Assembly: GCA_963719505.1 (NCBI GenBank)
Contig: CAVRCF010000002.1
Span: forward strand, 352,001 to 416,000
Direction: 5' to 3'
Length of the DNA: 64,000 bases
Source: Halobacteriovoraceae bacterium
GTDB lineage: Bacteria; Bdellovibrionota; Bacteriovoracia; Bacteriovoracales; Bacteriovoracaceae
Shown: positions 29,815-45,922 of the stretch, one piece after another
Layout of the letters: each line of letters starts with the position of its first letter
Numbering within the stretch: the first letter of the stretch is position 1
Notes under the pieces: model-generated
Seen by the model: the letters and a program-made list of their open reading frames with translations, nothing else
Databases searched by the model: none
What the model was told of the DNA's origin: nothing
Position numbers and translations under genes: made by a program

Positions 29815-29874
29815 AAGACTATTCTATCTTTTAGGCGGAGAATTTACTCTTTCGTTGAAGAAGTTTCAATGGGG

Positions 29875-31185
29875 TGTATAAAGATTCGACAATTATGTCC
29901 TATCCTTATTTCCCAGCGAAAATGTCCTACTTAACGCATTAATATTACAATACTCAGGTAATCAAACCTGAGGTGTTAAATGGGAAAAATAAGCATGGAT
30001 GCTAAACAAATGAAGCTTTATAGACTCGCCTGTGAAGTCTTAGCCGGAAAAATTTCTATTAAAGAATTTTCCATCATATCTAAAAAGTCATATCGCCAGT
30101 CTCAACGTATTATTAAGAATGTTGAGACTCATGACTTCATAGGAGTCATACATAAAAATTCTGGTGTTGCTCCAGTAAATAAAACTTCTGAAAGACTAGA
30201 AGCTTTGATCGTAGATCTTCTAACTTATAAGTATGTTGGATTTAATCTCACTCACTTTAACGAAATGTTAATTAAAAATGAAAACATTAAAATTTCAAAG
30301 TCTTCACTTCATCGAATTGCAACTAAACACAATCTTGTAAAAGCTCCAAGAAGAGCGAAGAGAAGATCTTTCAAGCCTAGAGCCAGAGTCCCTCAAGAAG
30401 GTATGCTCGTGCAGTTCGATGGAAGCCATCACCCTTGGTTTGGTAATCACAAATCGGACTTAATTGCAGCAATCGACGATGCAACCGGAAAGATTTTAGC
30501 AGCAGAGTTTTTTTACGGAGAGAAGTCGATGCATTCGATGAAAGTTATCAAGGAAGTAATTGATAAAAATGGAATTCCAGAAGCCTTCTACATGGATCAA
30601 GCAGGGATTTATGGAAAGGTAGATCGAGACTGGGAATCTCAGATCTCAAGAGCCTTTGATCAGGTTAATATTAACTTAATTCTTGCAAGCTCTCCACAAG
30701 CTAAAGGACGAGTAGAGCGTCTCTTTAGGACTCTACAAGATCGACTGGTAGCGGAGCTTTCGTTTTATAAAATAGAAACTTTGGAAGAGGCAAATGACTA
30801 TTTGAGAACAACTTTTATAGAAGCTTTTAATAAGCAGTTCTCGGTAGAGTCGCAAAGCTTCGATACAGCTTACAGGAAAAATGTTTTTGGAAATTTAGAC
30901 AGAGTTTTTTGTAAAAAAGAGAGAAGAAAAATTGGAGTTGGAAACGTATTTTCTTTCGAAGCAATTACTTGGTTGATAGACGAAAAGTTTTGCTATCGAG
31001 GTCGCGAAGTGAATATAAATACCCATCTTGATGGCAGTCAGAGCTTTGATATTATGGGTAAAGAAATATATCCAATAGTGTTCAACACAAAGAGGATTTA
31101 TGACTATAAAAAGCGAGCAATATGACACACAAGGTAGGACATAATCGCTGGGATATTAACCGGACATAGTCGCTGGGATTCAACA
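29875..31185 (+). mobile_element. IS1202-family (ISNCY) insertion sequence #1, ~1.31 kb; left boundary 29875 or 29877
   Basis: Direct repeat GAAGTTTCAATGGGG(TG) at 29860 and 31186. Right end ...TCAACA. Subterminal repeats CAGCG.[T/A][T/A]ATGTCC occur at both ends in inverted orientation. Confidence 0.9.
29980..31125 (+). CDS. ISNCY/IS1202-family DDE transposase
   Basis: N-terminal HTH, QFDGSHHPW, IDDAT, FYMD and SPQAKGRVERLFRTLQDRL. Confidence 0.92.
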   Translation: MGKISMDAKQMKLYRLACEVLAGKISIKEFSIISKKSYRQSQRIIKNVETHDFIGVIHKNSGVAPVNKTSERLEALIVDLLTYKYVGFNLTHFNEMLIKNENIKISKSSLHRIATKHNLVKAPRRAKRRSFKPRARVPQEGMLVQFDGSHHPWFGNHKSDLIAAIDDATGKILAAEFFYGEKSMHSMKVIKEVIDKNGIPEAFYMDQAGIYGKVDRDWESQISRAFDQVNINLILASSPQAKGRVERLFRTLQDRLVAELSFYKIETLEEANDYLRTTFIEAFNKQFSVESQSFDTAYRKNVFGNLDRVFCKKERRKIGVGNVFSFEAITWLIDEKFCYRGREVNINTHLDGSQSFDIMGKEIYPIVFNTKRIYDYKKRAI

Positions 31186-31219
31186 GAAGTTTCAATGGGG
31201 TGTCTATTTTTTAGACACT

Positions 31220-32419
31220 TTACTTTTCACTGGGCTCGTAGCGATTTTCAACACTTGGCCTCACCCTTAGGCTTGCTAGAAAGGGGACTTGAAAAGTTAG
31301 GCTCAGTCTGTCTCGATGATCTATTTGTTTTAGGGCCAGATCCCAGGGTGATGTAAAATCAATGGCTCTAGATGTTTTAATTCCCTTTCTAAAATGAAGT
31401 TCAAAGCTACTCTCTAGTTCTAAGCTGGCCAAGAAGATATCAAATTCGGTCCCAACTGATAGACCAAATCGAACCTCATTGAGCTTAAATAAACCCCTGT
31501 TTTGTTCTGCACGGTCTGCTGTTTTAAGAATGCTTAAAAATGGGATCGTTAACGAACTCATATTGAGTTTTTTAAGAATATCAGCTTTACGTGTCTTCGT
31601 ATATTCTACTAAAAAACCCGAGCCTGCAGATAAGGAGGCAAATTTGATATCTCCGCTGATATTTAGATCAAAAGAGGCTCTTAGACGATAGAGGTTATAG
31701 CCGGTTTCCCTTTTAATTTCATTTTCATCGACTTTGGAAATCTTTTTAAATAGTTTATCTACAAGCTCACTTTGTCTCGAGGATTCCTTCTCCTTTGAAG
31801 GTGTAATTTTAAATCTAAACCTAATTCTTTTGTCGTAGCCCACTTTTAAAAAATCTAATATTCCAAGATCAAAAGAGAAATAATAGTTTCTCCAAAAGCT
31901 ATTTATCTGCCACCCATTGGGCGGGGTGATGGAGCTCATTGTTTTAGCAAAAGTACTTATTTTTTTGGCATCTTTGTGGAGAGTTTTTAAAATTTTTCTT
32001 CTCACTGACGGTTTTATTGAATTCCAATCAACTTGAGATTTCAACTGCTCGACCAGATCCAATTTAAGTTTCTGTTGTTCATCCTGAGTTACGGATAGGG
32101 TTTTCATGGTCTTCGGAGTATCTGTTTCTTTTCTCCAAATGAACTCAACTGATTTTGAAAATCCAGTTGAGAAAATGCCAATGCCACCTTGGCCACTTAT
32201 TCCAATAGAGGCATCAATCCGTTCAAGGTTGTCGTATTTTCTATTTGCCTTGTCGATAATCCCCTCGTAAGCCTTAATGATAGACTCGATTTTCTCAGGG
32301 GCATAGACTTGAGAATCCTCTTTTAATAAGGTCTTTTTTCCAATCCAAGATAAAGGAATATCTTGGGCGTGAAGACAAAAAGAAAAGGCGAGGAGACTTA
32401 AAATGAAGAGATTTTTCAT
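31220..32419 (-). CDS. Secreted hypothetical protein
   Basis: Signal peptide and amphipathic beta-strand-like segments. Confidence 0.7.
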   Translation of the reverse strand: MKNLFILSLLAFSFCLHAQDIPLSWIGKKTLLKEDSQVYAPEKIESIIKAYEGIIDKANRKYDNLERIDASIGISGQGGIGIFSTGFSKSVEFIWRKETDTPKTMKTLSVTQDEQQKLKLDLVEQLKSQVDWNSIKPSVRRKILKTLHKDAKKISTFAKTMSSITPPNGWQINSFWRNYYFSFDLGILDFLKVGYDKRIRFRFKITPSKEKESSRQSELVDKLFKKISKVDENEIKRETGYNLYRLRASFDLNISGDIKFASLSAGSGFLVEYTKTRKADILKKLNMSSLTIPFLSILKTADRAEQNRGLFKLNEVRFGLSVGTEFDIFLASLELESSFELHFRKGIKTSRAIDFTSPWDLALKQIDHRDRLSLTFQVPFLASLRVRPSVENRYEPSEK

Positions 32420-32697
32420 TTGTCATTCTCCGGATAAAAACGAAATTCTATCGCAGTTTCAATGCCTTTATTCCAGCTCCAAAGTCCCGCTTTGGTATCA
32501 ATACTTAAACCAATGATCCTTTGAGAAAGGGAGAGTGAATTTTTAAGGGTGCTTTTTTGTCCAATGGATTCATCGAGTGAGTGAAGAATAAGGTTTTCAA
32601 AGTCCTGGCTTTCCACCTGTGTTTTAGGACCAATATAAAGGGTCTGCGCATGGAGCGCACTCGTCATGAGAAAAAAGGCGATAATAGACTTTTTCAT
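32416..32697 (-). CDS. Small secreted hypothetical protein
   Basis: Signal peptide MKKSIIAFFLMTSALHA. Overlaps the next start. Confidence 0.7.
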   Translation of the reverse strand: MKKSIIAFFLMTSALHAQTLYIGPKTQVESQDFENLILHSLDESIGQKSTLKNSLSLSQRIIGLSIDTKAGLWSWNKGIETAIEFRFYPENDK

Positions 32698-32813
32698 GGG
32701 GAAATTTTATAGCTTTCATGATCCAAATCAATCAATTAAGAATAAAATGTAATTTTTTCAGATTAAATTCTGCTTAATTTGTCTGTGAACACAATCTTTA
32801 AATTTTTAAAAGC

Positions 32814-33755
32814 TTAAACGAGCTCTTCAACCTCTTTGAAATACTTAAATGTTGTACCGATGTTTGAGGCTATTTTAATATGTTCTTGGGAGTCCATTTT
32901 AGTGGTCCACCAAGACTTTCTTATGAGAATTTGATCAACAAGGTTTGGGTGGAGTTTAGATATTTCCAAATAAATTTCAGGATCTCTTTGGCCTTCATCA
33001 CCGATGAGAATCAATTGACCTTTGTTAACGAGCTTCGAGATCTCTATAAGGTAGTCAAACTTTTGATGATGAGACTTTTTTGACTTTTGTTTGTCTCTTG
33101 TATTTTGAAGAAGGATTGGTCCGTTTGGAAAATCAAATTCAAGAATAAAATCTTTAATCATAGGATAGAGATCCCATGTCGAGCTTGAGACGTATATGAT
33201 TTTATTTCCTGCTCTTTCTAAATTCTGATAAAATTCACTCGCTCCTTCAAAGGAGCTTCTTTTTTTTAAAGGTCTAAATAGAGTTCTCAGTATTAACTTG
33301 GTAAGATTGGTCGCTTGAGATTTTAAAATAGTATCATCGAGATCACTCACAACAAGTTTCGAATCTCGACTCAGAAAATCAATAGGTATGTCTTTGTAGT
33401 TCTCATGCCCTTTTATTTTAAATTTTAAAACTTTTGATTGGGTTTCTACTTGTAGAGTCTTTTCAATAAATCCTCTTTTTGATGTTTTAAGAATGTGTTT
33501 TCTTCCATCAATGAGAAGCTCTACCTCTGTTCTTTTCGAACTTCTCGACAAAAAGAGTCGAATAACTTTGAGGATATGGGATGGATGTGAATCCTTTTTA
33601 GAGAATTTGATATCGGAATTTGATCTTACGATTCTAAGCCTCAAAAAAAGATTTTCACCATTGCTAATACAGGCGTATGTAAGAACCCTTTTAGGTTCTT
33701 TTCCTTTGAAGATAGACAAAGTCTCTCTTAAAAAATGGAGTGCATGATTAAGCAT
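32814..33755 (-). CDS. App1/DUF2183-like phosphatidate phosphatase (HAD-like)
   Basis: VSDLDDTI, YVSSS, FPNGPI and IGDEGQRDPEIY. Confidence 0.82.
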   Translation of the reverse strand: MLNHALHFLRETLSIFKGKEPKRVLTYACISNGENLFLRLRIVRSNSDIKFSKKDSHPSHILKVIRLFLSRSSKRTEVELLIDGRKHILKTSKRGFIEKTLQVETQSKVLKFKIKGHENYKDIPIDFLSRDSKLVVSDLDDTILKSQATNLTKLILRTLFRPLKKRSSFEGASEFYQNLERAGNKIIYVSSSTWDLYPMIKDFILEFDFPNGPILLQNTRDKQKSKKSHHQKFDYLIEISKLVNKGQLILIGDEGQRDPEIYLEISKLHPNLVDQILIRKSWWTTKMDSQEHIKIASNIGTTFKYFKEVEELV

Positions 33756-34014
33756 TTTTACCTCTTTGTTGATTTGTCTTTTCTATCTTAACAAATACAG
33801 AGAGATATACCTTGTATTGATTTGCATCAGATGTGTATTTTTTTTCAATAAATACAATATATTTCTATGACGAGGTGCAAGCTATGAAAGTTGACTTTTC
33901 TACTGTCTTTTCTCTTCAAAGAAACAATAAGTTGTAGTGTTTTGTGTTGAATTATTCACAGTACCTTCATGGATTTATGAGATAAAAGGTAAATACCTCC
34001 CGTATTATTATTAC

Positions 34015-34140
34015 AAGAGGAAGAGATCACATCTCTAAACCAGTCTAAGGACTAAACGGCCCGCCTCAAGTAGCTAAAAAATTTTAGCTACATTATCTAA
34101 AAAAAGTATTTATCAATACATTCTAGAATCTCTTCCTCTT
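34015..34140. ncRNA. Candidate structured ncRNA, copy 1
   Basis: 13-bp closing IR AAGAGGAAGAGAT/ATCTCTTCCTCTT. Internal hairpins AGTC-TAAG-GACT, GTAGCTAAAA-AA-TTTTAGCTAC and GTATT-TATC-AATAC. Confidence 0.55.
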
Positions 34141-34301
34141 AAGCTTTTTAAAGTTTAAATCTATCGCGCTAGTAGGTGAGTCTTTAGGTCGATTTTGAAT
34201 AAATTTGGTTTCAATGACTTGTATATTTTTGTGTTTAATATTGCACAGAACCTTCATGGATTTATGAGATAAATTGTAAGCACCTCACGTACTATTATTA
34301 C

Positions 34302-34427
34302 AAGAGGAAGAGATCACATCTCTAAACCAGTCTAAGGACTAAATGCCCCACCTCAAGTAGCTAAAAAATTTTAGCTACATTATCTAAAAAAAGTATTTAT
34401 CAATACATTCTAGAATCTCTTCCTCTT
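34302..34427. ncRNA. Candidate structured ncRNA, copy 2
   Basis: Same stems as copy 1, all preserved. Confidence 0.55.
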
Positions 34428-34433
34428 AAGCTT

Positions 34434-34889
34434 TTACCAAGAGCCAATATTTTCCATGCTCTGCCATGGCTCGCATATTTTAAGAGAATCACCTTTTTGA
34501 AGCAGTTCTATAGAGATACCATCAGGAGATTTGATAAAGGCCATGTGTCCATCTCTTGGAGGTCTATTGAGAATAACACCTTGATCCATCAGGTTCTTGC
34601 AAAATTCATAAATATTATCTACTCTGTAGGCAAGATGACCAAAGTTTCTTCCACCTTGATAGTCCTCAGTGTCACCATTTTCATCAGGCCAGTTATAGGT
34701 TAGCTCGAGAAGGGGAGATTTACTTGTTTGAGCTTTTTCAAAATTTTCATCATCTGACAGAAAGATCAATGTAAAACGTCCTCTTTCATTCTCTGATCGA
34801 CTGACTTCTTTGAGGCCAAGCTTATCACAGTAAAAGTCCAAACTTTTTGTTAGGTTTTTAATTCTTATCATCGTGTGAAGATATTGCAT
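34434..34889 (-). CDS. gloA: Lactoylglutathione lyase (glyoxalase I, VOC)
   Basis: YLHTMIR, LELTYNW, FGHLA and AFIKSPDGISIELLQ. Confidence 0.9.
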   Translation of the reverse strand: MQYLHTMIRIKNLTKSLDFYCDKLGLKEVSRSENERGRFTLIFLSDDENFEKAQTSKSPLLELTYNWPDENGDTEDYQGGRNFGHLAYRVDNIYEFCKNLMDQGVILNRPPRDGHMAFIKSPDGISIELLQKGDSLKICEPWQSMENIGSW

Positions 34890-34897
34890 GAGAACTC

Positions 34898-35626
34898 CTA
34901 TAAGTTTTTATATAAAATAAAGGATCCCATAATAATAAGAAAAATAGCAAATATCTTTTTTAATTTTGCTTGTGGAACTTTTGTATTAAGGATGGCACCT
35001 AGGAAAATACCAATAGTTGAGCAGATTGAAAAAAGGATCATGAGCTTCCAAGGTATATCGACTCTGCCAAGATAGGATAGGAAGCCAAAAATAGAATTAA
35101 AGCTAATAATGAAAAGTGATGTTCCCACAGCTTTTCTCATATCTATTCCGGTAAAGAACATAAGTGCCGGAACGATTAAGAACCCCCCCCCAACGCCGAT
35201 AATTCCTGTCATGACTCCAACAAAAATGCCCGATACTGAGATGAGTGGGTAGTTGAGACCTCTGGGGTGGTCATCTATTTCAGCTCTTCCTCGAAACATA
35301 AATACTGCGGCAATTATCATAATGGCAGAAAAAATGAGAAGTTGTATCTGACCGGTTAAAAATTGACTTAGATAAGATCCAAGATAGGTTCCAGGTACGG
35401 CGAACCCTCCAAAGATAAAAGCAATTTTAAAACTTATGTTTTTATTTTTAAAGTGACCGTACATGCCCATTAAAGCTGTCCAACCAACAATCGCTAAGCT
35501 CATTGCAACGGAGACTTTAGGGTCTACATTAAAGATGTAGACAAGAATGGGGACGGTGAGAATAGATCCACCTCCACCAAGAAGGCCCATTGCCAAACCA
35601 GCAAATAAAGCTAAAGCATATCCCAT
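34898..35626 (-). CDS. TauE/SafE family sulfite exporter
   Basis: GLLGGGGSILTVP, GIIGVGGGFLIVP and AVGTSL. Confidence 0.9.
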   Translation of the reverse strand: MGYALALFAGLAMGLLGGGGSILTVPILVYIFNVDPKVSVAMSLAIVGWTALMGMYGHFKNKNISFKIAFIFGGFAVPGTYLGSYLSQFLTGQIQLLIFSAIMIIAAVFMFRGRAEIDDHPRGLNYPLISVSGIFVGVMTGIIGVGGGFLIVPALMFFTGIDMRKAVGTSLFIISFNSIFGFLSYLGRVDIPWKLMILFSICSTIGIFLGAILNTKVPQAKLKKIFAIFLIIMGSFILYKNL

Positions 35627-35675
35627 AATCTTATTCCTTTTCTTTCTATACTAGCTTTTAACCAGCGGCATGTAA

Positions 35676-35689
35676 TTGATAGAGATCAA
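35676..35689 (-). promoter_or_regulatory. FNR/CRP-type box upstream of the tauE-family gene
   Basis: TTGAT-AGAG-ATCAA is a perfect FNR consensus, centred about 41-42 bp upstream of the start expected from the -10-like TAGTAT (35648-35653, minus strand). Confidence 0.75.
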
Positions 35690-36294
35690 TGACCAAAGTT
35701 TTTTAAGTCTTCTTCACTCAAAATATCTATGGATCTTCCATTCTTCTCAATAATCTTGGCTTTTTCTAGTTTTGATATAACTCTTGCCACTGACTCTGGG
35801 GTTGTCGATGCGAAATCAGCGATGTCTTTACCTTTCCATTTAATTTCGGGATCTTTAATTTTCAAAAAAAGTAAGGCTTCGGCCACTCTCTTAGTTACTG
35901 TTTTATCCTGGACTGATGCTAAACGAATTTCAGTTTGCGCCAAGTCCCTTGCCAAGGTTTTCATAATCGTTTTTAAAATTTCTGGGCTTTCAGAGCAAAG
36001 TTGATCACATGCCTCTTTTGAAATGACTTTCACTTTTATATCTGTGAGAGCAAAAGCTGTAGCGTGATGGGGCTCTTGTGCAAAAAAAGAGCGATGACCC
36101 ATATGATCATTTTCTTTGAAGATTCTGAGAAATGTGCTCTTTCCATTTTCTGTATTATAAGAGAGTCCAACAACACCATCAAGGAGATAGTAGACATGGT
36201 CTGGAGCATCACCCTCATGGTAAACAAAAGCGCCTTTAGTTAATACTTTTACTGGAAGAGATGTATCTAACTTGACGATATTACTTAGACTCAA
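35686..36294 (-). CDS. Crp/Fnr family transcriptional regulator
   Basis: cNMP-like domain (VYHEGD) and HTH IADFASTTPESVARVI. TTG start. Confidence 0.88.
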   Translation of the reverse strand: MSLSNIVKLDTSLPVKVLTKGAFVYHEGDAPDHVYYLLDGVVGLSYNTENGKSTFLRIFKENDHMGHRSFFAQEPHHATAFALTDIKVKVISKEACDQLCSESPEILKTIMKTLARDLAQTEIRLASVQDKTVTKRVAEALLFLKIKDPEIKWKGKDIADFASTTPESVARVISKLEKAKIIEKNGRSIDILSEEDLKNFGH

Positions 36295-36314
36295 GTGTTA
36301 ATCCTTTTACAAAA

Positions 36315-36328
36315 TTGATAGAGAACAA
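36315..36328 (+). promoter_or_regulatory. FNR/CRP-type box upstream of the persulfide dioxygenase operon
   Basis: TTGAT-AGAG-AACAA matches the 35676 box at 13 of 14 positions. A -10-like TATGAT at 36351-36356 gives class II spacing. Confidence 0.7.
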
Positions 36329-36387
36329 TGTTTTAAATTTGATATTAATATATGATACTGAATGAAAGGACTATTAGGAAATATATT

Positions 36388-37266
36388 ATGACTTTAAAAG
36401 TACAACATTTTTTCGACGAAAAGACTAAAACATTAAGTTATATCGTTTATGATGAAAAGACGTCAGACTGCGTCCTTATTGATCCCGTTTTAGATTATGA
36501 TCAAGCCTCCTCAAAGATTTCAAATGAATCAATAAAGGCGGTTAAAAGTTTTATAGCAAAGAAGTCTCTAAAGGTGCATTATATTTTAGAGACTCATGCT
36601 CATGCGGATCACCTCTCAGGAGCTCAGGAATTATTAGAATCTTTTGATCATGCAAAGCTTGTGATTGGAAAAAACATCACAAAGGTTCAAGAAGTTTTTT
36701 CTAAAATATACAATTTAAAAAACCTAAACCTCAAAGGTGAACAGTTCGATATCTTAGTCGATGAAGACTCTGTTTTGAAAGCCGGAAGCTTTGAGATTAA
36801 TGTCATCGAAACTCCTGGGCATACGCCAGCTTGCGTCTCTTATCATATAGAAAACCATCTCTTCACAGGAGATGCTCTTTTTATGCCTGACTATGGAACG
36901 GGAAGGTGTGACTTTCCAGCAGGAAGTGCAAAAGACCTTTACCATTCAATACACGAAAAGCTTTATAAACTACCAGATGAAACACAGTTCTACACCTGTC
37001 ACGATTATCAACCCAACGGAAGACAGATGATATACACATCTTCAATCGGTGAGAGTAAAGCTCGTAATATTCAGTTGAAAGACTCTACAACACGTAGTGA
37101 GTACATAGAGTTCAGAGAGAAAAGAGATGCCACTTTGAGCGCACCAACTCTTTTACTTCCAAGTATACAAATAAATATTGATGGAGGCCGTCTTCCCAAA
37201 GAAGAAGACAACGGCACCTCTTATATAAAAATACCTTTAAACAGAGAGGACGAATATGAACGGTGA
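36388..37266 (+). CDS. Persulfide dioxygenase (ETHE1/Blh-like metallo-beta-lactamase fold)
   Basis: ETHAHADHLSG, TPGHTPAC, GDALFMPDYGTGRCDFP and CHDY. Confidence 0.88.
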   Translation: MTLKVQHFFDEKTKTLSYIVYDEKTSDCVLIDPVLDYDQASSKISNESIKAVKSFIAKKSLKVHYILETHAHADHLSGAQELLESFDHAKLVIGKNITKVQEVFSKIYNLKNLNLKGEQFDILVDEDSVLKAGSFEINVIETPGHTPACVSYHIENHLFTGDALFMPDYGTGRCDFPAGSAKDLYHSIHEKLYKLPDETQFYTCHDYQPNGRQMIYTSSIGESKARNIQLKDSTTRSEYIEFREKRDATLSAPTLLLPSIQINIDGGRLPKEEDNGTSYIKIPLNREDEYER

Positions 37267-37675
37267 AATATTATTTCCTCTTATTGGAGGCATTTTAATT
37301 GGGTTGGCAGCTAGCCTTGTTCTTGTCGGTTTAGGAAAAATCACAGGTATAAGTGGTATTTTAGCATCAGCCGTTTTTAATCCAACTCTTAAAGAAAATG
37401 TCTGGAAGATTGTTTTTGTCTGTGGCTTGATTCTTGGTGGACTTTTAATGAGAAGGTTTTATCCCGAACTTTTTAACTATTCCATTTCAACCAATATTCC
37501 TCTTGTTATTGCGGCAGGTTTGTTGGTTGGATTCGGCACCAGGCTTGGAAGTGGATGCACCTCTGGGCACGGGGTTTGCGGTTTACCAAGACTGTCAAAA
37601 AGATCCTTAGTCGCGACCCTCACTTTCATGGGGAGCGGAATTATAACTGTTCTGATTAAAGGAGCTCTTTCATGA
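37256..37675 (+). CDS. YeeE/YedE family sulfur-transport membrane protein (PmpA-like)
   Basis: GISGI and GSGCTSGHGVCG..R.S.RS. Confidence 0.88.
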   Translation: MNGEILFPLIGGILIGLAASLVLVGLGKITGISGILASAVFNPTLKENVWKIVFVCGLILGGLLMRRFYPELFNYSISTNIPLVIAAGLLVGFGTRLGSGCTSGHGVCGLPRLSKRSLVATLTFMGSGIITVLIKGALS

Positions 37676-38073
37676 AAAATGTTCTGAGTTTATTTGCAGG
37701 GATGATATTTGCCATAGGTCTTGTCGTATCAGGAATGACAAATCCCGCAAGAGTCATCGGTTTTTTAGATATTTTTGGGCAGTGGGATTATTCCTTGGCC
37801 TTTGTCATGGGTGGAGCTGTTGTTGTTAACTTGGTTCTTTTTCGATGGATTTTAAAAAGAGATCCCATTTTTAATGGTAAACATGATCTTCCGACAAATA
37901 AGCTTATCGATAAAAAACTAATTATTGGATCAACTTTATTTGGTGTCGGTTGGGGACTTGTTGGAATTTGTCCAGGTCCAAGTATCGTTAATCTCGTCAC
38001 TGGAAACGTCAGCGCAATCATCTTTTTTCTCGCAATGATTGCTGGTTTTTTCTTAGAAAAAAAGCTTAATTAA
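37672..38073 (+). CDS. YeeE/YedE (DUF6691, PmpB-like) membrane protein
   Basis: GM.NPARV.GFLD..G.WD.SL and FGVGWGL.GICPGP. Confidence 0.88.
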   Translation: MKNVLSLFAGMIFAIGLVVSGMTNPARVIGFLDIFGQWDYSLAFVMGGAVVVNLVLFRWILKRDPIFNGKHDLPTNKLIDKKLIIGSTLFGVGWGLVGICPGPSIVNLVTGNVSAIIFFLAMIAGFFLEKKLN

Positions 38074-39439
38074 ATTCGCCATTTTTCAATTTATCAAAAT
38101 ATCGTTTCGTTTGAACTTTAAGCTTAGGCAGTAAAAGCCAAATAGCAATGATATTTGGAAACACCATCATCCCGGTCATAATGTCCGAGAAGTCGAGAAC
38201 TGCTTGAACTTTCCATACTGATCCCAGAAAAGCCACGATACAAAAGACAACTTTATAGGGGACGATACCTTTTTCTCCTGTCAGATAGTGAATCGCTGTC
38301 TCACCGTAATAAGACCAACTTATCAATGTAGAAAAAGCAAATAATGTTGCAGCAACTGGAATAAAGAAATGTCCAAAACCATCTATTACTGTGTCAAAAG
38401 CTAGTGCTGTTAAGGGGACACCAACTAAGTCTGAGCTTTCCCACACGCCTGTTGTGAGAATAACTAAAGCTGTAAGAGTACAGATTGTAACGGTATCGAT
38501 AAAAGGTCCAAGGAGAGCGACAACACCCTCTCTAACTGGCTCTGTCGTTGATGCGGCAGAGTGTGCAATCGCCGCAGATCCCAAGCCCGCTTCATTCGAG
38601 AAGCATGCTCTTTTTACTCCTTGAAGGATGGCCATGTGCATCGTTGCAACAAGTCCTCCCGAGAGTCCTGTATTAGAAAAAGCACTTGTAATAATTAGAG
38701 AGATGAGACCAGGGATTTTTTCATAGTGAAAAGAGATGACAATAATGCATCCAATAATATAAGTGACGGCCATCACAGGAACAAGAAGACTGGTGACTTT
38801 GGCAATTCTGTTAATTCCACCAATAATTACAATACCACCTAGAATCATAATCGTTAGACCCGTCACTAGGTGTGGGACGCCAAAGCTTTGATTGAGGATG
38901 ACCGCTGACTGATTTGTTTGAAACATATTGGCAATTCCAAAACTTCCGATAGCGATTGAAAGAGCGTAGAACTTTGCCATTGGCTTGAACTTTTTTCCAA
39001 GTCCCAGTTCCATATAGTACATTGGTCCACCACGAACAACGCCATTTGGCTCAATTTTTCTAAAGAGAATGGCGAGTGTGGATTCAGCATATTTTGTGGC
39101 CATCCCAATAACTCCAGCGACAATCATCCAAAATACAGCCCCAGGACCACCATACTTTATAATGATGGCAACGATTCCAATATTTCCTAGACCTATAGTG
39201 GCAGAAAGAGCGGTCATAAGTGCTTGAAAATGAGAAATCTGTCCTGGGTCATCATCTTTATCAAATTTTCCACGAATAACTTGAATCCCGTGGAGAAAGG
39301 CTTTTCTTTGAATACCTCCATAAATACCGCCAAGAATAACGGATAGAAGGAGTCCTGATAAAATTAAAACAATAATTGTAGGAAGTCCCCAAACATAGCT
39401 AACTGTAAGGGCCAAAAAGTTTTCGATAGAAGTCATCAT
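38066..39439 (-). CDS. Alanine/glycine:cation symporter (AGCS family)
   Basis: IGLGNI, GGPGAVFWM, GGPMYY and FSNEAGLGS. Confidence 0.92.
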   Translation of the reverse strand: MMTSIENFLALTVSYVWGLPTIIVLILSGLLLSVILGGIYGGIQRKAFLHGIQVIRGKFDKDDDPGQISHFQALMTALSATIGLGNIGIVAIIIKYGGPGAVFWMIVAGVIGMATKYAESTLAILFRKIEPNGVVRGGPMYYMELGLGKKFKPMAKFYALSIAIGSFGIANMFQTNQSAVILNQSFGVPHLVTGLTIMILGGIVIIGGINRIAKVTSLLVPVMAVTYIIGCIIVISFHYEKIPGLISLIITSAFSNTGLSGGLVATMHMAILQGVKRACFSNEAGLGSAAIAHSAASTTEPVREGVVALLGPFIDTVTICTLTALVILTTGVWESSDLVGVPLTALAFDTVIDGFGHFFIPVAATLFAFSTLISWSYYGETAIHYLTGEKGIVPYKVVFCIVAFLGSVWKVQAVLDFSDIMTGMMVFPNIIAIWLLLPKLKVQTKRYFDKLKNGEFN

Positions 39440-39477
39440 AACTAATAGTGACGCAATAAATTTACATTGTAAAATAG

Positions 39478-40791
39478 CTAGAGGGCCTTGGCGATTCCGC
39501 TAGATATATCAAAGCAATTCCACTGTAGTATGTCGTTTTTTTGATTTTGGCAGTAGCAAGCGACTAACTGGTCTTTCTCCACTCTCTCACTTGCTGTAGA
39601 GCAGTTTTTATTTATATAGTTTTGAGACAGCTCAATTCCAGAAGATGGAGACATCGGTCCCGAACAAATAAGTTGTGCTAGATTTTTATTTTTTATCCAC
39701 GTTCCATCAATACAAATTGATTCGTCTCCTTGGCAGTGTTTAACTTCGCCAATATATTCACTGTAGCATGATTCCCCAGAGGAGCGACTGATAGCATTAT
39801 TAGTATCCTCAACTGAACACACGGCTCCAGAATTAGCCGGAGTGATATTATTTAACTGATCACTCATCTGAGCAACTTTACTAATAGGACTGTAGTCTTT
39901 TGTGTAGATACCGTCTTGAAAATCTCCGCTTAGGTACTGATCCATAGAGATAAAGTCAATGCCCAGGCACTTTCCCTTTTCGATCAACTCATCCATGACC
40001 GTCTTTTGAGTATTATATTTTGAAGGAAGAGAGTTTATCTCCCTGGTATCATGAAAAAGAGTCATGAAGTTTTTCACTGAACTTTTGCAAATCGATTTTA
40101 GTTGATCTTGAATATATTTGTCTTTATTAGATTCGCTATAGGTTGAACTGGCATCTTTAGAATCTAAGTTCCAGCCAATATGAGACAAATTAAATTCACT
40201 TGCCACACTCATAGCCGGACTATTGAGGCGATAGTATTTAAGTTTTTCCGCGTAACTCGCTCCTATAATTCTTCTGCCTTGTTCGTCGATCATTGTTTGA
40301 ATTTCTTTTTTACTAGGGGATATTCCTCGACCGTAAGGGAAGCGTAAAAGCGTGTGCTTTTGTTTTTGAAATTTACCATCAGTAAAAGAATTTAAAAGAG
40401 AAACACTTTTACCAATTTGATCACGTCTTTGTTGATCAGAGTAGCCTACTTCAAGAGAATCACCAACGTAGCGAAGATCGTGACAATTATGATCGTGGAC
40501 GTGGCTTGAGAGAGTATGCCCCGAATCTAGCATTGAATTTAAAATAAGTTTTTTTTGTTTAAGGTCACCCTTTTCAAGTTGATGAGTAGAAATAAAAAAA
40601 GTCGCTTTTACGTTTTGTCTTTTTAGTGTTTCGACAATCTTGGGTGTTGTCGTTGTGTTTGGCCCATCATCAAAAGTGAGATGAACTTTTTTATTATCAC
40701 AACTCTTTATCTCAGAGATGTCGTTTTTATAAAGATCGCAGTTTTGAGCTGAAGCGATAGAGAAGGGAATAAGAGCAAGAAGAAAAAACAT
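39478..40791 (-). CDS. Secreted polysaccharide/peptidoglycan deacetylase (NodB/CE4) with Cys-rich C-terminus
   Basis: LTFDDGP, SHVHDH, RFPYG and LFHD. Confidence 0.85.
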   Translation of the reverse strand: MFFLLALIPFSIASAQNCDLYKNDISEIKSCDNKKVHLTFDDGPNTTTTPKIVETLKRQNVKATFFISTHQLEKGDLKQKKLILNSMLDSGHTLSSHVHDHNCHDLRYVGDSLEVGYSDQQRRDQIGKSVSLLNSFTDGKFQKQKHTLLRFPYGRGISPSKKEIQTMIDEQGRRIIGASYAEKLKYYRLNSPAMSVASEFNLSHIGWNLDSKDASSTYSESNKDKYIQDQLKSICKSSVKNFMTLFHDTREINSLPSKYNTQKTVMDELIEKGKCLGIDFISMDQYLSGDFQDGIYTKDYSPISKVAQMSDQLNNITPANSGAVCSVEDTNNAISRSSGESCYSEYIGEVKHCQGDESICIDGTWIKNKNLAQLICSGPMSPSSGIELSQNYINKNCSTASERVEKDQLVACYCQNQKNDILQWNCFDISSGIAKAL

Positions 40792-40851
40792 CTGTTTATT
40801 ATATCAAGGAATTAAAGAGGTTTTCATGTGAGTAGTATTTGCCACTTGTTG

Positions 40852-40886
40852 AAAAAAATAAAGCCGAGGTTTTTACCCCGGCTTTT
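40852..40886 (-). terminator. Rho-independent terminator
   Basis: AAGCCGGGG-loop-CCTCGGCTT followed by a U-rich tail on the minus strand. Confidence 0.75.
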
Positions 40887-40890
40887 GATA

Positions 40891-41838
40891 TTATTGATTT
40901 TGTACTGAGATATAGTCAAATAGGTTGCTATCATCGATATTGATTTCAGAAAATTTTGTTGATCCATAACTTGTTACTAAAGCTCCAATATTATTAGCTT
41001 CTGTTTCAGTATGTCTCATTAAAAGTTTTGTGGCTTTTCTATCATTAGCTATCTTGATACCAACTCCCGCAGATAGTATAGTTGATCTTTTTATAATCAC
41101 TTCTTCAGCGTCATAAACATGGATTCCTTCAGCTGCATTTCCAAGAGTTGAATCTACTATTCTAACCAGTTTTGTATCGTAGATAAAAACCTGTGTTCCA
41201 TCAATCTGTGCATTAGAAAGATCCATATCTTTAATGACAACTTTCTCAGTGGCCTTAAGGTTAAAACCATTCGCAGATCCATCAAAGATGCTATTGTGTT
41301 TTTCAAGAATTCTAATCTTTTTTGCAGAAAGGCTTAGAGCCACTTGTTTTGAATATGAAAAATCTGAATTGATAAATCTTGGAGAATAATCACAGCTTGG
41401 GGCATTGACTCGCGCACCATAAGTATTATGACTGAGATCACTATTTGAAACTCTTAATCTGTCACAAGATTGATCATCTTCAGAATAAAAATCAACTCCC
41501 ATATACATATCAGTAGCGATAACTTTGTTGAGAATCAATTTCTTTACATTATAACCCTCAACCGCTTTGGCCGTTTCGCTTCCTTCTATCTTTACATTTC
41601 TTATTCTAATCGTGTCACCTTCAGCATAGATACCAACTGTCGTGTTTGGAGTGATAATTCTGTGACCATTTCCTTGTAAAATAGCTTCACCTCTCAAAGA
41701 GAGTGCTGAGTACCCTGAGTGAGCTGAACAATCTAGATCTTCAGTCATCTTTACTTCAGTTGTAATAGTGTCTCCGCAGTTAAGTGCGAATGCTGATAGT
41801 GAAATTAAATTAAGTGCCGTGATAGTAAGTAGTTTCAT
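40891..41838 (-). CDS. Secreted right-handed parallel beta-helix protein
   Basis: Signal peptide, CGDTI...DL.C...L.GNGH.I start and repeated G[IV]x[IV] strands. Confidence 0.72.
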   Translation of the reverse strand: MKLLTITALNLISLSAFALNCGDTITTEVKMTEDLDCSAHSGYSALSLRGEAILQGNGHRIITPNTTVGIYAEGDTIRIRNVKIEGSETAKAVEGYNVKKLILNKVIATDMYMGVDFYSEDDQSCDRLRVSNSDLSHNTYGARVNAPSCDYSPRFINSDFSYSKQVALSLSAKKIRILEKHNSIFDGSANGFNLKATEKVVIKDMDLSNAQIDGTQVFIYDTKLVRIVDSTLGNAAEGIHVYDAEEVIIKRSTILSAGVGIKIANDRKATKLLMRHTETEANNIGALVTSYGSTKFSEINIDDSNLFDYISVQNQ

Positions 41839-41889
41839 TTTTTCCCCTCTCTCAAAAGTTAAATTAAATGTCTTTGTTTCTTTAAGAGC

Positions 41890-41905
41890 TGCAAGGAGAG
41901 GGCCA
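41890..41905 (-). promoter_or_regulatory. Putative sigma-54 (-24/-12) promoter
   Basis: TGGCCCTCTCCTTGCA has exact GG-N10-GC spacing, about 50 bp upstream of the 41838 start. Confidence 0.6.
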
Positions 41906-41999
41906 AAAAGGAAGGTGGCTAATTAGTTGAATATTCTTTTATGAAGGAAGAGAAACTGTAAATTTTTTAGGAGCTGTATAGAAACTAGACGATTATGTC

Positions 42000-43749
42000 G
42001 TAACTGCTCAATAAAGTGTTCTTCAAATCTTTAAAAATATTTATTTTGAACTAATCATCAGAAATTGTTTGGCCATCCATCTCTTTTTTGTAAATATATC
42101 TCCATGGCATTTGATGAATTAAAAAACATGGCAATGGGATGGGTAAATACTTGGAATAAAGGCAAACTCAAAAGAAAGTTAAAAGAGACTGCTCAGCGTG
42201 CTGTAGACCTTACTATAGAAAATTCAGAGTTGGAAAAAAAGAATAGTGAACTCATAGATGAAGTTCGTCGTCTCAAAGGTGAAAAAGAAAAACCTAAAAT
42301 AAAGCCAACAAATACTAGTGACCTAAATCCACCTCCGAAGAAAGAACATAAGAAAAAGTCTAAAAAGAAAGATATCGAAGTTGATGAAGAGATTGAAATT
42401 TCTCCAGATAAAAATGAACTCCCTAAAGACGCTAAATTCATCGGTTCTAGAGATGTTGTGGTCCAAGAAATAGTATTTAATCGCAGAAATATAAAATTCT
42501 CTATTAAGAGATATTACTCTGAAAGTCTTAGTAGAGTTATCGAAGGTGAGATACCTTCAGGTTTCAAGGGCCATCAGTTTGGTCCTAAACTTCGGGCCCA
42601 CATTCTTTATTTGAATTACAAATTAAGAGTTCCCCACGAAAAGATTAGAGAAATGCTCTCTGAGCTAAAAATTGATATTAGTGCTGGAACTATAAATTCA
42701 ATTCTAAATAACCTGACTGATGACTTTCAGGTTGATCTGGAATCCGCAAGACATGCAGGACTAAAAAGAGATTCGAAAGTTCATATCGATGATACTGGGG
42801 CGAAAGTTAATGGAGTAAAAGCTTACACATTTGGAGTAAGCCATAAGTACTTTACTAGCTTCACTACGAGTTTTGAAAAGAATCGTTGGGCATCGGTGGG
42901 AGCACTCTTTGGAGGTGAGCAAAGGTTTATTTTCGATAGAGCTGCAATTGATTTTATTGGTAAGAAACTAAAACGTCCCAAGGTTACAGTATTTTTTAAC
43001 CTTCTAGAAAAGAAGATAAGTTTTAGTCGAGAAGAATTAGAGGTCTTTTTTGAAGATTCGACTTTCTCAGATGTAACTAAAAAACAAAAAGATATCGTTA
43101 GAACTGCTGGTGCACTTAGTTATGCGAACTCTAGAGCGAATGGACCACCAATAAGATTTTTAATCTCAGATGAAGGGACAAATTTTAATGGGCTTCATAG
43201 GAACCATCAGCTTTGTTGGGTGCATGAGATTCGTAAATATAAGCTATGTGAGGTTTTCAAAAGAATAGAGAGTGAAACCCTTGAGAAATTGGTTCGTCAG
43301 TGGAGAGCTTTTTATAAGCTCATGAAGAGGTACAGGAATAATCCTGACACCGTTAAGAGAATACAGATTCGATCAGAATTTGAGAGGATCACGTCTTTAA
43401 AAACATTAGTTAAACCACTGGATGCACAGCTTGGAAGAACAAGAAAGAATAGAGATAAACTTTTACTATTTTTGAAATACCCACAACTTCCTCTGGATAA
43501 TAACCTTTGCGAAAGAGACCTTCGAGAACGAGTGATAAAAAGAAAAATCTCACTTCAAAACCGCTCATTGAAAGGAATGAAGTCTTGGGACTTGATGCTT
43601 TCACTGGCCTCAACTTGTAGAAAAATAAATTTGAGTTTTTGGCGATATTTAGAAGATCGAATCTCCCAACGAGAAGAAATTCCATACCTGGGCAAGCTAG
43701 TTCAAGCTATTTAAATCCTATAAATTTAAACACAATATTGAGCAGTTAC
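42000..43749 (+). mobile_element. IS66-family insertion sequence (single ORF, ISBst12-like), 1750 bp
   Basis: TIRs GTAACTGCTCAATA/TATTGAGCAGTTAC. 8-bp target duplication ATTATGTC at 41992-41999 and 43750-43757. Confidence 0.93.
42104..43714 (+). CDS. IS66-family DDE transposase (TnpC-like)
   Basis: N-terminal coiled coil, HIDDTG, LISD, QLCWVHEIRK and DNNLCERDLR. Confidence 0.9.
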   Translation: MAFDELKNMAMGWVNTWNKGKLKRKLKETAQRAVDLTIENSELEKKNSELIDEVRRLKGEKEKPKIKPTNTSDLNPPPKKEHKKKSKKKDIEVDEEIEISPDKNELPKDAKFIGSRDVVVQEIVFNRRNIKFSIKRYYSESLSRVIEGEIPSGFKGHQFGPKLRAHILYLNYKLRVPHEKIREMLSELKIDISAGTINSILNNLTDDFQVDLESARHAGLKRDSKVHIDDTGAKVNGVKAYTFGVSHKYFTSFTTSFEKNRWASVGALFGGEQRFIFDRAAIDFIGKKLKRPKVTVFFNLLEKKISFSREELEVFFEDSTFSDVTKKQKDIVRTAGALSYANSRANGPPIRFLISDEGTNFNGLHRNHQLCWVHEIRKYKLCEVFKRIESETLEKLVRQWRAFYKLMKRYRNNPDTVKRIQIRSEFERITSLKTLVKPLDAQLGRTRKNRDKLLLFLKYPQLPLDNNLCERDLRERVIKRKISLQNRSLKGMKSWDLMLSLASTCRKINLSFWRYLEDRISQREEIPYLGKLVQAI

Positions 43750-43837
43750 ATTATGTCCTATCCTTATTTCTCAGCGATTATGTCCTATTCAATAATATTT
43801 ATGTACCCTGATTCCAATCAGTTATTAGGGGAATTGA

Positions 43838-45001
43838 ATGGGAAAAGTCACTATGTCACAAAAAGAATTGAAGCAGTATCGCCTGGCCATGGATGTTATT
43901 GAAGGTAAGTTAACTATAATTTCCTTCTCTGAACAGATTGGAAAATCGTATCGACAATCTCAGAGAATTATCAATAAAGTTAAGGCCAAGGGTTCGATTG
44001 GTGTCTTACATGGAAACATTAATCGAACTCCTCACAATAAAACTCCATTCGAAGTTGAAGAAAAAATAGTCTCTCTTCTAAAAAATCAATATCGAAACTT
44101 TAATCTAACTCATTTTCGAGAAAAGATAGAAGAGTATGAGGAAATTAAAATCAAAAAAGATGCACTTCACTCAATTGCTAGGAAACATTGCCTTGTAAAA
44201 CATCCTAAACGAAGAGGAAGACGGTGCCATAAACCAAGAGCAAGACTTCCAAAAGAAGGGATGATGATTCAGTTTGATGGAAGTGATCATACTTGGTTCG
44301 GTGATGAAAGAACTGATTTGATTGGAGGAATTGATGATGCTACCGGGATTGTTGTTGGTGCTGAATTTTTCTATGGAGAGACGTCAAATAACTCTCTGAA
44401 GGTGATTAGGGAGATCGTTGATAACTATGGATTGCCAGAAAGTTTCTATATGGACCAAGCAGGTATTTATGGTAAGAAAGAGCGCGAGTGGGAATCACAA
44501 ATTTCGAGAGCATTTGATCAAACAGGAATTCAATTAATCTTAGCAGGTTCTTCTCAAGCAAAGGGAAGAATAGAGAGACTCTGGAGAACATTCCAAGACA
44601 GACTGGTAGCGGAGTTAGAATTTAATCACATAACAAATATTGAAGAAGCCAATTATTACTTAAAAGAGATTTTTATTCCTGCATACAATTTTCAATTCTC
44701 AGTCAAAGCCGAAGAAGAAGAAGAAAAAGCCTGGAGAAAAAATGTTTTTGGAGACCTAGATATTATATTTTGTAAAAAGATTAGGCGAAAAATTATGGTT
44801 GGAAATGTATTTAGTTGGGAGAATGTGACTTGGGTGTTGGATGAAAAAAGGTGTTTCTATGGACGAGAAATCAATATAAATATTCACCTTGATGGAAGCT
44901 ACAGCTTCGATGTGATGGGCAGAAAAGTTCAATGTAAAGTTAGTAATAGGAAAAGATTAAGTGACTATGGTGATAAGTCGAAACACAGAAAAAGCGCTTA
45001 A
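43838..45001 (+). CDS. ISNCY/IS1202-family DDE transposase
   Basis: QFDGSDHTW, IDDAT, FYMD and QAKGRIERLWRTFQDRL. Homologous to, but diverged from, 29980..31125. Confidence 0.92.
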   Translation: MGKVTMSQKELKQYRLAMDVIEGKLTIISFSEQIGKSYRQSQRIINKVKAKGSIGVLHGNINRTPHNKTPFEVEEKIVSLLKNQYRNFNLTHFREKIEEYEEIKIKKDALHSIARKHCLVKHPKRRGRRCHKPRARLPKEGMMIQFDGSDHTWFGDERTDLIGGIDDATGIVVGAEFFYGETSNNSLKVIREIVDNYGLPESFYMDQAGIYGKKEREWESQISRAFDQTGIQLILAGSSQAKGRIERLWRTFQDRLVAELEFNHITNIEEANYYLKEIFIPAYNFQFSVKAEEEEEKAWRKNVFGDLDIIFCKKIRRKIMVGNVFSWENVTWVLDEKRCFYGREININIHLDGSYSFDVMGRKVQCKVSNRKRLSDYGDKSKHRKSA

Positions 45002-45076
45002 AGTCTGATAGGACATAATCGCTCAGAAATTAACCGGACATAATTGCCCAGAAACAACAAATTTTTTAGGAGCTGT

Positions 45077-45922
45077 CTAAAGTTTAGACGATTCTAAGCA
45101 GTTGGGATCTATATCATCTCTTTTTTCAAAGCCGCTTTTATCTTTCTTTAATTGGTGAGAGTTTTCCCAGCTAAGACAGCTTATAGCTTTAGAGCGATCT
45201 GTATCAGATGGGCCTAAATTTCTAGGGACATCTTGGGTTTTAAAGAGGCATGTTTCAAAAATCATCGAGGCAATCTTAGTTGTCTTTGAGGTTTTACCAG
45301 CATGAGTGCCATGTGAGATTAAGTTTTCACTGTATCGACTTCCTGTGGGCATATCGGAAAAGTGAATAATCGGTTTAATGATCTCAGGTGAAAAGAAAAG
45401 GTATTCATCATTATCATCGATTTCAGTAAACAAAAGGGAAATTGTTTCATCTCGCTTAACCTTATATAAACCATGACGATCATTTTGTTCGCTGTATGAT
45501 GCGTAAATTGGATCGTCATCGAAAGAATCAATAACAAGATCTTCATGCCTGAAATTTATTTTTTTACCAAAAAAATCTCTACGAGTTCCCGATTTACGAA
45601 TGGTCTCCGGTTCATCGTCTTTTTGATTTTTTTCATAGATACAGCCTTTTATGTACTGAACGACTGCATACTTCTTTATCACATCTTTGGATGTCACTTC
45701 GTACTTTCCTTCAAGGAAGGTTGTCGCGTAATGAATGGGAGTTGATGAGATGGTGGTATCTGTTTCAAAATCTTTAAAGATTGTTATGGAGAAGCTCTTT
45801 AAATCACATGAGTTCGTGACTGAGCAGTCTTTATTAATAAATGACTTCGTTTCTTGCTCCATCGCTCCAGCAGAAAAAAGGGCGAGAAAGCTTAAAAAGA
45901 TCAGTATAAAGTAATTTGTCAT
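45077..45922 (-). CDS. Secreted hypothetical protein
   Basis: Signal peptide and several Cys (YAVVQYIKGC). Confidence 0.7.
   Translation of the reverse strand: MTNYFILIFLSFLALFSAGAMEQETKSFINKDCSVTNSCDLKSFSITIFKDFETDTTISSTPIHYATTFLEGKYEVTSKDVIKKYAVVQYIKGCIYEKNQKDDEPETIRKSGTRRDFFGKKINFRHEDLVIDSFDDDPIYASYSEQNDRHGLYKVKRDETISLLFTEIDDNDEYLFFSPEIIKPIIHFSDMPTGSRYSENLISHGTHAGKTSKTTKIASMIFETCLFKTQDVPRNLGPSDTDRSKAISCLSWENSHQLKKDKSGFEKRDDIDPNCLESSKL

Follow-up and report, generated by a model that had tools for sequence, protein, structure and literature searches.

In the two accounts of the IS1202 family of insertion sequences cited here, as far as they go, site-specific targeting is described for the ISAba32 subgroup (ISAjo2, ISAba71, ISKpn21) only, and its target is the XerC/D site (bioRxiv 10.1101/2022.12.17.520857; PMC10132070). 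The transposases of the family are characterized by a DDE triad with a DD pair placed between its first and second D, and by a Q rather than a K or R after the E (bioRxiv 10.1101/2022.12.17.520857); the outer ends read 5′-TGT ... ACA-3′, and one tabulated member, ISTde1, is 1327 bp long, makes a 17-bp duplication, and encodes a protein of 394 amino acids (aa) (PMC10132070). Here we consider two elements, A and B, in a 64,000-nucleotide (nt) stretch of Halobacteriovoraceae DNA (positions 352,001 to 416,000 of contig CAVRCF010000002.1, assembly GCA_963719505.1; hereafter the window), which is part of a 3.69-Mb, 5-contig genome of 37% G+C. Both are IS1202-family elements, ISTde1-like in duplication and size, and they appear to represent a clade in Bdellovibrio-like predatory bacteria that inserts site-specifically and in a fixed orientation. 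The landmark appears to be a 17-19 bp host palindrome, (G/C)TGTCTAAAnTTTAGACA(G/C), that is promoter-proximal and lies before genes for exported proteins. The parts of the two insertions are as follows, in coordinates of the window.

29860..29876, forward strand: left copy of the element A target duplication (GAAGTTTCAATGGGG+TG), found again as the same string at 31186-31202; 17 bp, the typical length being 16 bp
29875..29891, forward strand: left-junction look-alike of A, formed by the target TG and the first 15 nt of the element (TGTATAAAGATTCGACA)
29877..31185, forward strand: element A proper, 1309 bp, from TATAAAG... to ...TTCAACA
29980..31125, forward strand: element A transposase, 381 aa; NCBIfam NF033594, 302.8 bits (cut-off 250)
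31186..31202, forward strand: right copy of the A target duplication, identical to the left copy
31201..31217, no strand: intact host palindrome TGTCTATTTTTTAGACA beside A, 2 nt past the stop of minus-strand gene 31220-32419
41961..41976, forward strand: left copy of the 16-bp element B target duplication (AATTTTTTAGGAGC+TG), the same string as 45060-45075
41975..41991, forward strand: element B left junction, TGTATAGAAACTAGACG
41977..45059, forward strand: element B, about 1.32 kb minus its passenger, split by a nested IS66-family element
43838..45001, forward strand: element B transposase, 387 aa; NCBIfam NF033594, 313.1 bits (cut-off 250)
45060..45075, forward strand: right copy of the B target duplication
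45074..45090, no strand: host palindrome TGTCTAAAGTTTAGACG beside B, overlapping the stop of minus-strand gene 45077-45922

The four 17-mers at 31201-31217, 45074-45090, 29875, and 41975, on which the first-pass annotation of this DNA had built its case, all read in the sequence as that annotation gave them. It had proposed from these two insertions that this group of IS1202-family elements enters at one palindromic host motif, and that other insertions should show the palindrome at a fixed offset. We therefore scored right flanks by their match to TGTCTAAAnTTTAGACA out of 16 positions, taking the best of offsets 12-16 past the right end, and widened the set from two to 44 distinct flanks (13 from this genome, 5 from other genomes, and 26 from metagenome contigs). 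The proposal holds in this larger set. Scores of at least 11/16 were found in 39/44 flanks and of at least 12/16 in 37/44, whereas random genome positions reach these values at rates of 0.0040 and 0.0006, respectively, and an internal control at offsets 32-36, 18 nt farther from the element, gave 11/16 just once in 43 flanks. The offset among the 39 matching flanks is 14 nt in 36, 15 in 2, and 13 in 1. The target logo is symmetric, (A/G)(G/C)TGTCTAAAnTTTAGACA(G/C), with columns that are inflated since its rows were picked by score; G2, A6, and C16 are invariant in 39/39 targets, and the 14 nt before the palindrome (X14) carry no information. Three further in-group flanks, found in a phylum-wide search, score 14, 10, and 9.

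The flanks were drawn from scans that also yielded loci we left aside. The scan of species genomes gave 11 loci, of which L024-L028 have recognisable in-group ends and were used; the ends of L029 are unclear, L030-L033 have other ends or 31-35% identity, and L034 is truncated. The metagenome scan gave 42 loci, 26 with distinct right flanks and 16 left out: duplicates (L088, L103, L114), loci where the contig stops too early (L091, L097, L099, L100, L107, L108, L117, L118, L121), L123, and the partial loci L126-L128. The genome that contains the window holds five copies of element A (99.7-100% identical) and eight of element B (99.7-99.8%). A target duplication is present in 11/13, and the palindrome follows the right end in 10 of these 11, the exception being B2 (10/16, offset 13). 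The two copies that have no duplication are B5, where the inverted left tip of a truncated element A lies 14 nt beyond the right end, and B6, where nothing similar follows; no partner flank for either was found in the genome. A DNA search of 40 relatives with the right flank gave nothing usable as an empty site, these genomes being too diverged, and the sequencing runs of one sediment metagenome contained two internal pieces of the element only, with no empty site or junction. At the starts of several contigs in two assemblies (G112: C22, C30, C4, C18; G388: C1, C35, C40), a palindrome or a left tip stands 100-160 nt in from the contig end, which suggests that many more element copies break the G112 and G388 assemblies beside palindromes.

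The junctions can be placed to the base. B2 reads AG and B3 reads CG in place of TG, past the right-hand duplication as well as at the left junction; in L100 a 16-bp duplication ends in AG and the element starts TCTAG. In the 1409-bp contig L123 a right end is joined to a left end (...CACA followed by TATAG) with a spacer of 0; this could be a tandem pair, or else a circular intermediate of transposition that was captured in the assembly. At the right end, as in sister elements, 18 nt separate the tip from the inner ATGTCC repeat, and the left end shows this spacing only if its tip is T3 of the palindrome. The non-TG junctions, the L123 join, and these equal distances show that the duplication is X14+TG (16 bp, range 15-17); the left end is therefore joined between G2 and T3 of the palindrome, with the right end joined 16 bp (15-17) leftward. 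Joining at these two points duplicates X14+TG and leaves the palindrome intact 14 nt past the right end. Duplications are 15-17 bp long, mostly 16, in the 11 copies here and in L024, L025, L027, L100, L104, and L125; the sister elements make 16-bp duplications too.

The left end itself resembles the target. Of the 14 positions that the element contributes, 8-12 agree with the host consensus in every one of the 21 distinct left tips (11/14 for element A), whereas the two right tips agree at 5 and 7 of 14, in line with the first-pass annotation, which saw no such pattern at the right ends. That annotation also described the left junction as a mimic of the motif; the look-alike is indeed there in 21/21 tips, although its first TG belongs to the target duplication and not to the element. 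The left tip of most relatives reads (TG)T[A/C]TAGTTTCTAGACG, and the commonest form, (TG)TCTAGTTTCTAGACG, is itself palindromic. Since the tip starts at the equivalent of T3, the palindrome is repeated at the left junction without a shift in register. Six sister or outgroup elements (nine copies at 37-54% identity: one element with four copies in a family genome, and L030, L150, L152, L153, and L156) have symmetric TGT... or other ends, and they show neither a look-alike nor an adjoining palindrome. The transposases of targeting and non-targeting elements can be aligned over their full length, neither group having an extra domain, and the two groups share the same inner repeats. As far as these alignments go, the visible difference between targeting elements and their non-targeting sisters is the DNA end. 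The look-alike lies 88 nt upstream of the transposase start, inside the range seen for host genes, and its role may just as well lie in the regulation or the targeting of the element itself, or in a link between the transposase and a host regulon.

NCBIfam NF033594, named for an "ISNCY family transposase," is a model that we take to cover the IS1202 group. The A and B transposases are 59% identical; D147, D166-D167, D206, E246, and Q253 (E+7) are invariant between them and kept in 14 aligned relatives, so that both the DD pair and the Q downstream of E of the IS1202 signature are present. Near each end lie two units of the GCGA(T/A)(T/A)ATGTCC type, putative transposase sites (in element A, two GCGAnnATGTCC-type subterminal repeats per end), in keeping with the second, inner repeat for transposase binding that the family has at its ends. 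The right end is ...ACA in all copies and sister elements carry TGT at both ends; the element proper starts TAT or TCT here, so the TGT at the junction owes its TG to the target. Placement near ISTde1 was judged on size and duplication length: that subgroup is matched in element length (1.31-1.33 kb), transposase size (381-387 aa), and duplication length (15-17 bp), and differs in the left tip, which here is TA or TC instead of TG. With the ISAba32 subgroup the elements have in common the transposase family, an oriented insertion near a short host protein-binding site with one duplication copy between, and a site open to more than one element. The differences are larger. The duplication is 16 bp here and 5-6 bp there; the target is an 8-1-8 palindrome found about 20 times per genome before genes, rather than an 11-6-11 Xer site; the intact site adjoins the right end here and the left end there; and in the present elements the duplication shares 2 bp with the site and the left tip bears a copy of it. 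Membership among the ISAba32 Xer-site hunters is ruled out by the 16-bp duplication and by a 17-19 bp palindrome that stands before many genes, and the palindrome is no Xer site, as neither copy number nor architecture matches. We found no account in the literature of the TTTAGACA motif in predator genera or of such a target for an IS1202 or ISTde1 element, although preprint supplements may hold ISTde1-type flanks.

The palindrome belongs to the host. Perfect 6-5-6 forms occur seven times in this genome and not at all with spacers of 3, 4, 6, 7, or 8; allowing one mismatch there are 21 with spacer 5 and 2-10 with other spacers. Four of the seven perfect sites hold A or B and one holds an IS66-like element, so that 5/7 are occupied. 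Across 24 genomes of the same family we counted 82 perfect copies, as opposed to 8 for a reversed control, and across 16 more distant genomes 13 as opposed to 6. A search of the 24 family genomes for the transposase returned relatives at no more than 39% identity, in four genomes, and no in-group element; the two motif-richest genomes (17 and 15 sites) are among those without one. In those two, 29/32 sites overlap no open reading frame (ORF) of at least 70 aa, and an ORF starts toward the site in 31/32, mostly 20-150 nt away. In the present genome 19/28 sites with 0-1 mismatch lie between ORFs, and two more touch just the last codons of an ORF. Genes that start toward a site begin with a signal-peptide-like sequence in 63/74 cases, as compared with 1460/3456 ORFs genome-wide (42%). 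Pfam families among the neighbors include proteases (S8, S41, C1, trypsin-like), phospholipase D, and a beta-helix protein, many neighbors being without a family, and in two genomes the site accompanies an orthologous DUF7844/Lnb_N gene. Variant sites break base pairing without compensation, and for that reason the palindrome looks like a protein-binding site and not a hairpin.

Other roles for the palindrome were considered. A hairpin or terminator was rejected, as variants break the pairing and no T run follows. An ordinary -35 box was likewise rejected: among 40 oriented sites, a -10-like hexamer is present at a spacer of 16 in one, of 17 in none, and of 18 in one, so that no spacing stands out. 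No other conserved column was found within 90 nt of the palindrome, and in eight outgroup flanks inspected by eye no consistent -35 element was seen beside the duplication. In 6/40 oriented sites (L055, L064, L065, L066, L070, L075) CCGATAA or CCGACAA was noticed by eye 30-60 nt downstream of the palindrome, in one case before a flagellin gene; this heptamer resembles the -10 element of flagellar sigma-28 promoters. Elsewhere in the genome, outside the window, a one-mismatch palindrome (G000 C2:222913) lies 91 nt upstream of a multicopper oxidase gene.

Further evidence comes from unrelated elements. One correction to the first-pass annotation concerns element B (41977-45059), which carries a nested IS66-family element, inserted beside the B left tip.

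41992-41999 and 43750-43757: 8-bp duplication of the IS66-like element, ATTATGTC, abutting the B left-tip look-alike directly
42000..43749, forward strand: nested IS66-family element, 1750 bp, with ends GTAACTGCTCAATA...; transposase ORF 42065-43714, Pfam PF03050, 92.7 bits
G000 C1:1015646-1017395: another full copy of the IS66-like element

Nine full copies of this element are present in the genome, each with an 8-bp duplication (9/9); the 549-aa transposase matches Pfam PF03050 (92.7 bits, cut-off 23.1) and scores 162.8 against NCBIfam NF033517, under its cut-off of 180. In six of the nine the duplication abuts a 17-mer scoring at least 11/16 (14, 13, 12, 12, 11, and 11), a seventh abuts a 16-bp palindrome, and two abut nothing like it. 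The left tips of A5 and B8 account for two of the six 17-mers; there the IS66-like element lies 8 bp from the look-alike, just as it does beside a perfect host site. In L101 an IS66-like end stands 8 bp from a palindrome whose other side holds a B-like element. These positions indicate that the IS66-like element has a preference of its own for the palindrome. An ISL3-family element (Pfam PF01610, 423-aa transposase, end GGGATCTTTCTCA...) abuts position 16/17 of a look-alike in L105 (10-1281, minus strand), and the same element abuts X14+T(G) in the right flank of L087 and L088; two metagenome contexts thus place it at the edge of a palindrome or look-alike. An inverted left tip stands 14 nt from B5 in the present genome and from L148 in another. 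The look-alike, then, is treated as a target by IS66-family and ISL3-family elements and by element B itself.

What reads the palindrome is less certain. We put the probability that the reader is a host regulator at about 0.5, and we slightly favor such a regulator over the transposase. One symmetric DNA-binding protein would recognize the left tip as well as the target palindrome, and would thereby set the left end on the target; the transposase would sense either the bound regulator or the DNA distortion that the regulator causes, and the same site may place the transposase gene, 88 nt downstream, under the regulator. We suspect a host reader because the site exists without elements and is symmetric, because the right end lacks it, because unrelated families use it, and because the sisters differ visibly in the DNA end alone. 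Motif content differs between hosts: other hosts are enriched (motif and control counts of 34 vs 9, 38 vs 10, and 21 vs 7), and some show little enrichment (15 vs 15 in a host of non-targeting sisters). Transposons led to protein-occupied sites have precedents in the Tn5053/Tn402 "res hunters" and the Tf1/Ty retrotransposons, which are guided by DNA-bound host factors. The likeness is one of concept; the transposition machinery differs. A small response regulator encoded at G000 C5:764.6-765.1 kb (minus strand) is a 173-aa frame with a receiver and a Fis-type helix-turn-helix (HTH_8, 53.6 bits). It is the sole small HTH_8 frame that came up when a Fis-like site was considered, and it is a possible candidate for the reader of the palindrome.

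Several points weigh against a host regulator and the targeting it would explain. Five of the 44 flanks score below 11/16: B2, L102, and L122 at 10, with no clear palindrome; B6 at 6; and L087 at 6, the last because of a later ISL3 insertion at that flank. The samples are not independent, coming as they do from related genomes and contigs, and the rule behind the signal-peptide enrichment (binomial 3e-14) is crude. All of the IS66 and ISL3 cases lie on DNA that also holds A/B-type elements. The host genome of L024, an insertion with a proper duplication and palindrome on a 223-kb contig, has no perfect copy of the motif, 8 one-mismatch copies vs 17 for the control, and 34 vs 33 matches to a degenerate pattern, and such targeting without enrichment fits recognition carried by the element; the host of L025 is similarly unenriched, on a contig of just 2.3 kb. 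Lastly, no transcription factor gene adjoins the examined sites, and Pfam detected no DNA-binding domain among 83 proteins encoded beside sites, nor did a relaxed re-scan of four of them. An autoregulated regulator encoded beside its own site was accordingly set aside.

The transposase could instead read the palindrome as a pseudo left end: the DNA-binding part with which it knows its left tip would bind the host palindrome too, and the bond between G2 and T3 would be placed in an active site; the clade would then have evolved specificity for a frequent and harmless site upstream of promoters. We regard this as a credible account that falls short of an even chance. End-like recognition would give tip and target the same register, as observed; look-alike and targeting co-occur; and the insertion into the unenriched genome is what an element-borne specificity would produce. 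IS30 and IS911 insert beside sequences resembling their own ends, at a fixed place next to the target, and are a precedent of sorts, except that the target here is a conserved host palindrome, present also in element-free genomes, that only the left tip resembles and that unrelated elements share. A right end without the motif fits poorly with this reading. The GCGATTATGTCC subterminal repeats, which resemble transposase sites, are common to non-targeting sisters, whose proteins differ by no extra domain. The symmetry of the site suggests a dimeric regulator, and two unrelated families on the same site and look-alike would each need a separate explanation. We looked for a host relative of the N-terminal 100 aa of the transposase in the two motif-rich, element-free genomes and found none, a result that counts only against a domain borrowed from the host.

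That no protein reads the site at all is improbable in our estimation. A hairpin, a cruciform, or a bend at the AAAnTTT center might make the palindrome a general hot spot, and three transposase families do insert at its edges, while some copies have extended stems, such as GGAGGTGTTAGAATTCTAACACCTCC. A structural hot spot would not, however, hold G2, A6, and C16 fixed in 39/39 targets or the spacer fixed at 5, variants break the pairing, and sister elements in motif-bearing hosts ignore the palindrome. Still further from what we would credit, and already contradicted, is the idea that the palindromes are relics of the elements (solo left ends or excision footprints), with an association that is self-made. 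The resemblance of left tips to the palindrome would follow from it, but the palindrome abounds in genomes that gave no in-group element, exceeds every left tip in symmetry, has no adjoining ATTATGTCC repeat, and stands before genes for exported proteins, an orthologous pair included. Returning to a host reader, we offer one fuller scheme tentatively, as something we doubt more than we believe: the regulator of a secreted-protein regulon would be a landing pad for at least three unrelated insertion sequence families, its operator would have been copied onto the left tip of one clade, and the regulator would bridge the element to operators and switch the transposase gene with the regulon.

The neighboring genes bear on the orientation of the insertions and on a further suggestion of the first-pass annotation, that the left end rebuilds an operator for the gene it faces.

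28591..29814, minus strand: gene toward which the A left end points; 407 aa with a signal-peptide-like N-terminus, without a Pfam family
40891..41838, minus strand: gene toward which the B left end points; 315 aa with a signal-peptide-like N-terminus and a right-handed beta-helix
45981..45997, no strand: unoccupied palindrome-like site TGTCAAATATTTAGACA, 58 nt upstream of the start of minus-strand gene 45077-45922

Both faced genes begin with signal-peptide-like sequences, as expected of the secreted proteins they had been taken to encode, and 7/10 insertions in this genome have their left end turned toward a start codon at a distance of 72-150 nt. With the empty site reconstructed, palindrome 31201-31217 would lie 75 nt upstream of the start of gene 28591-29814. 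For A1, A3, B1, B3, and B8, which lie between co-directional genes, the stop of the upstream gene lies 0-14 nt past the far side of the palindrome in four cases and 172 nt past it in B3; the orientation can be explained by the fact that insertion on that side would clip the upstream gene. Restoration of an operator is not supported as proposed, given that the original palindrome stands intact beside the right end and was never destroyed, and a look-alike that restores the operator is not needed to explain the data. Just upstream of the A transposase start, a stem CTCAGG/CCTGAG at 29953-29972 spans the GAGG ribosome-binding site, and element B and relatives have similar inverted repeats at the matching place before the transposase start; such a stem over the ribosome-binding site probably blocks translation of read-through transcripts.

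These elements would extend site-specific targeting in the IS1202 family to a wholly different landmark, a second kind of target beside the Xer site, and they suggest a design rule in which the element end copies the target and non-targeting sisters are without the copy. They also bring to light a palindrome, seemingly conserved and operator-like, that precedes genes for exported proteins in marine predatory bacteria and may serve as bait for its regulator. With 5/7 perfect sites occupied in this genome, the elements probably shape the expression of predation-related genes.

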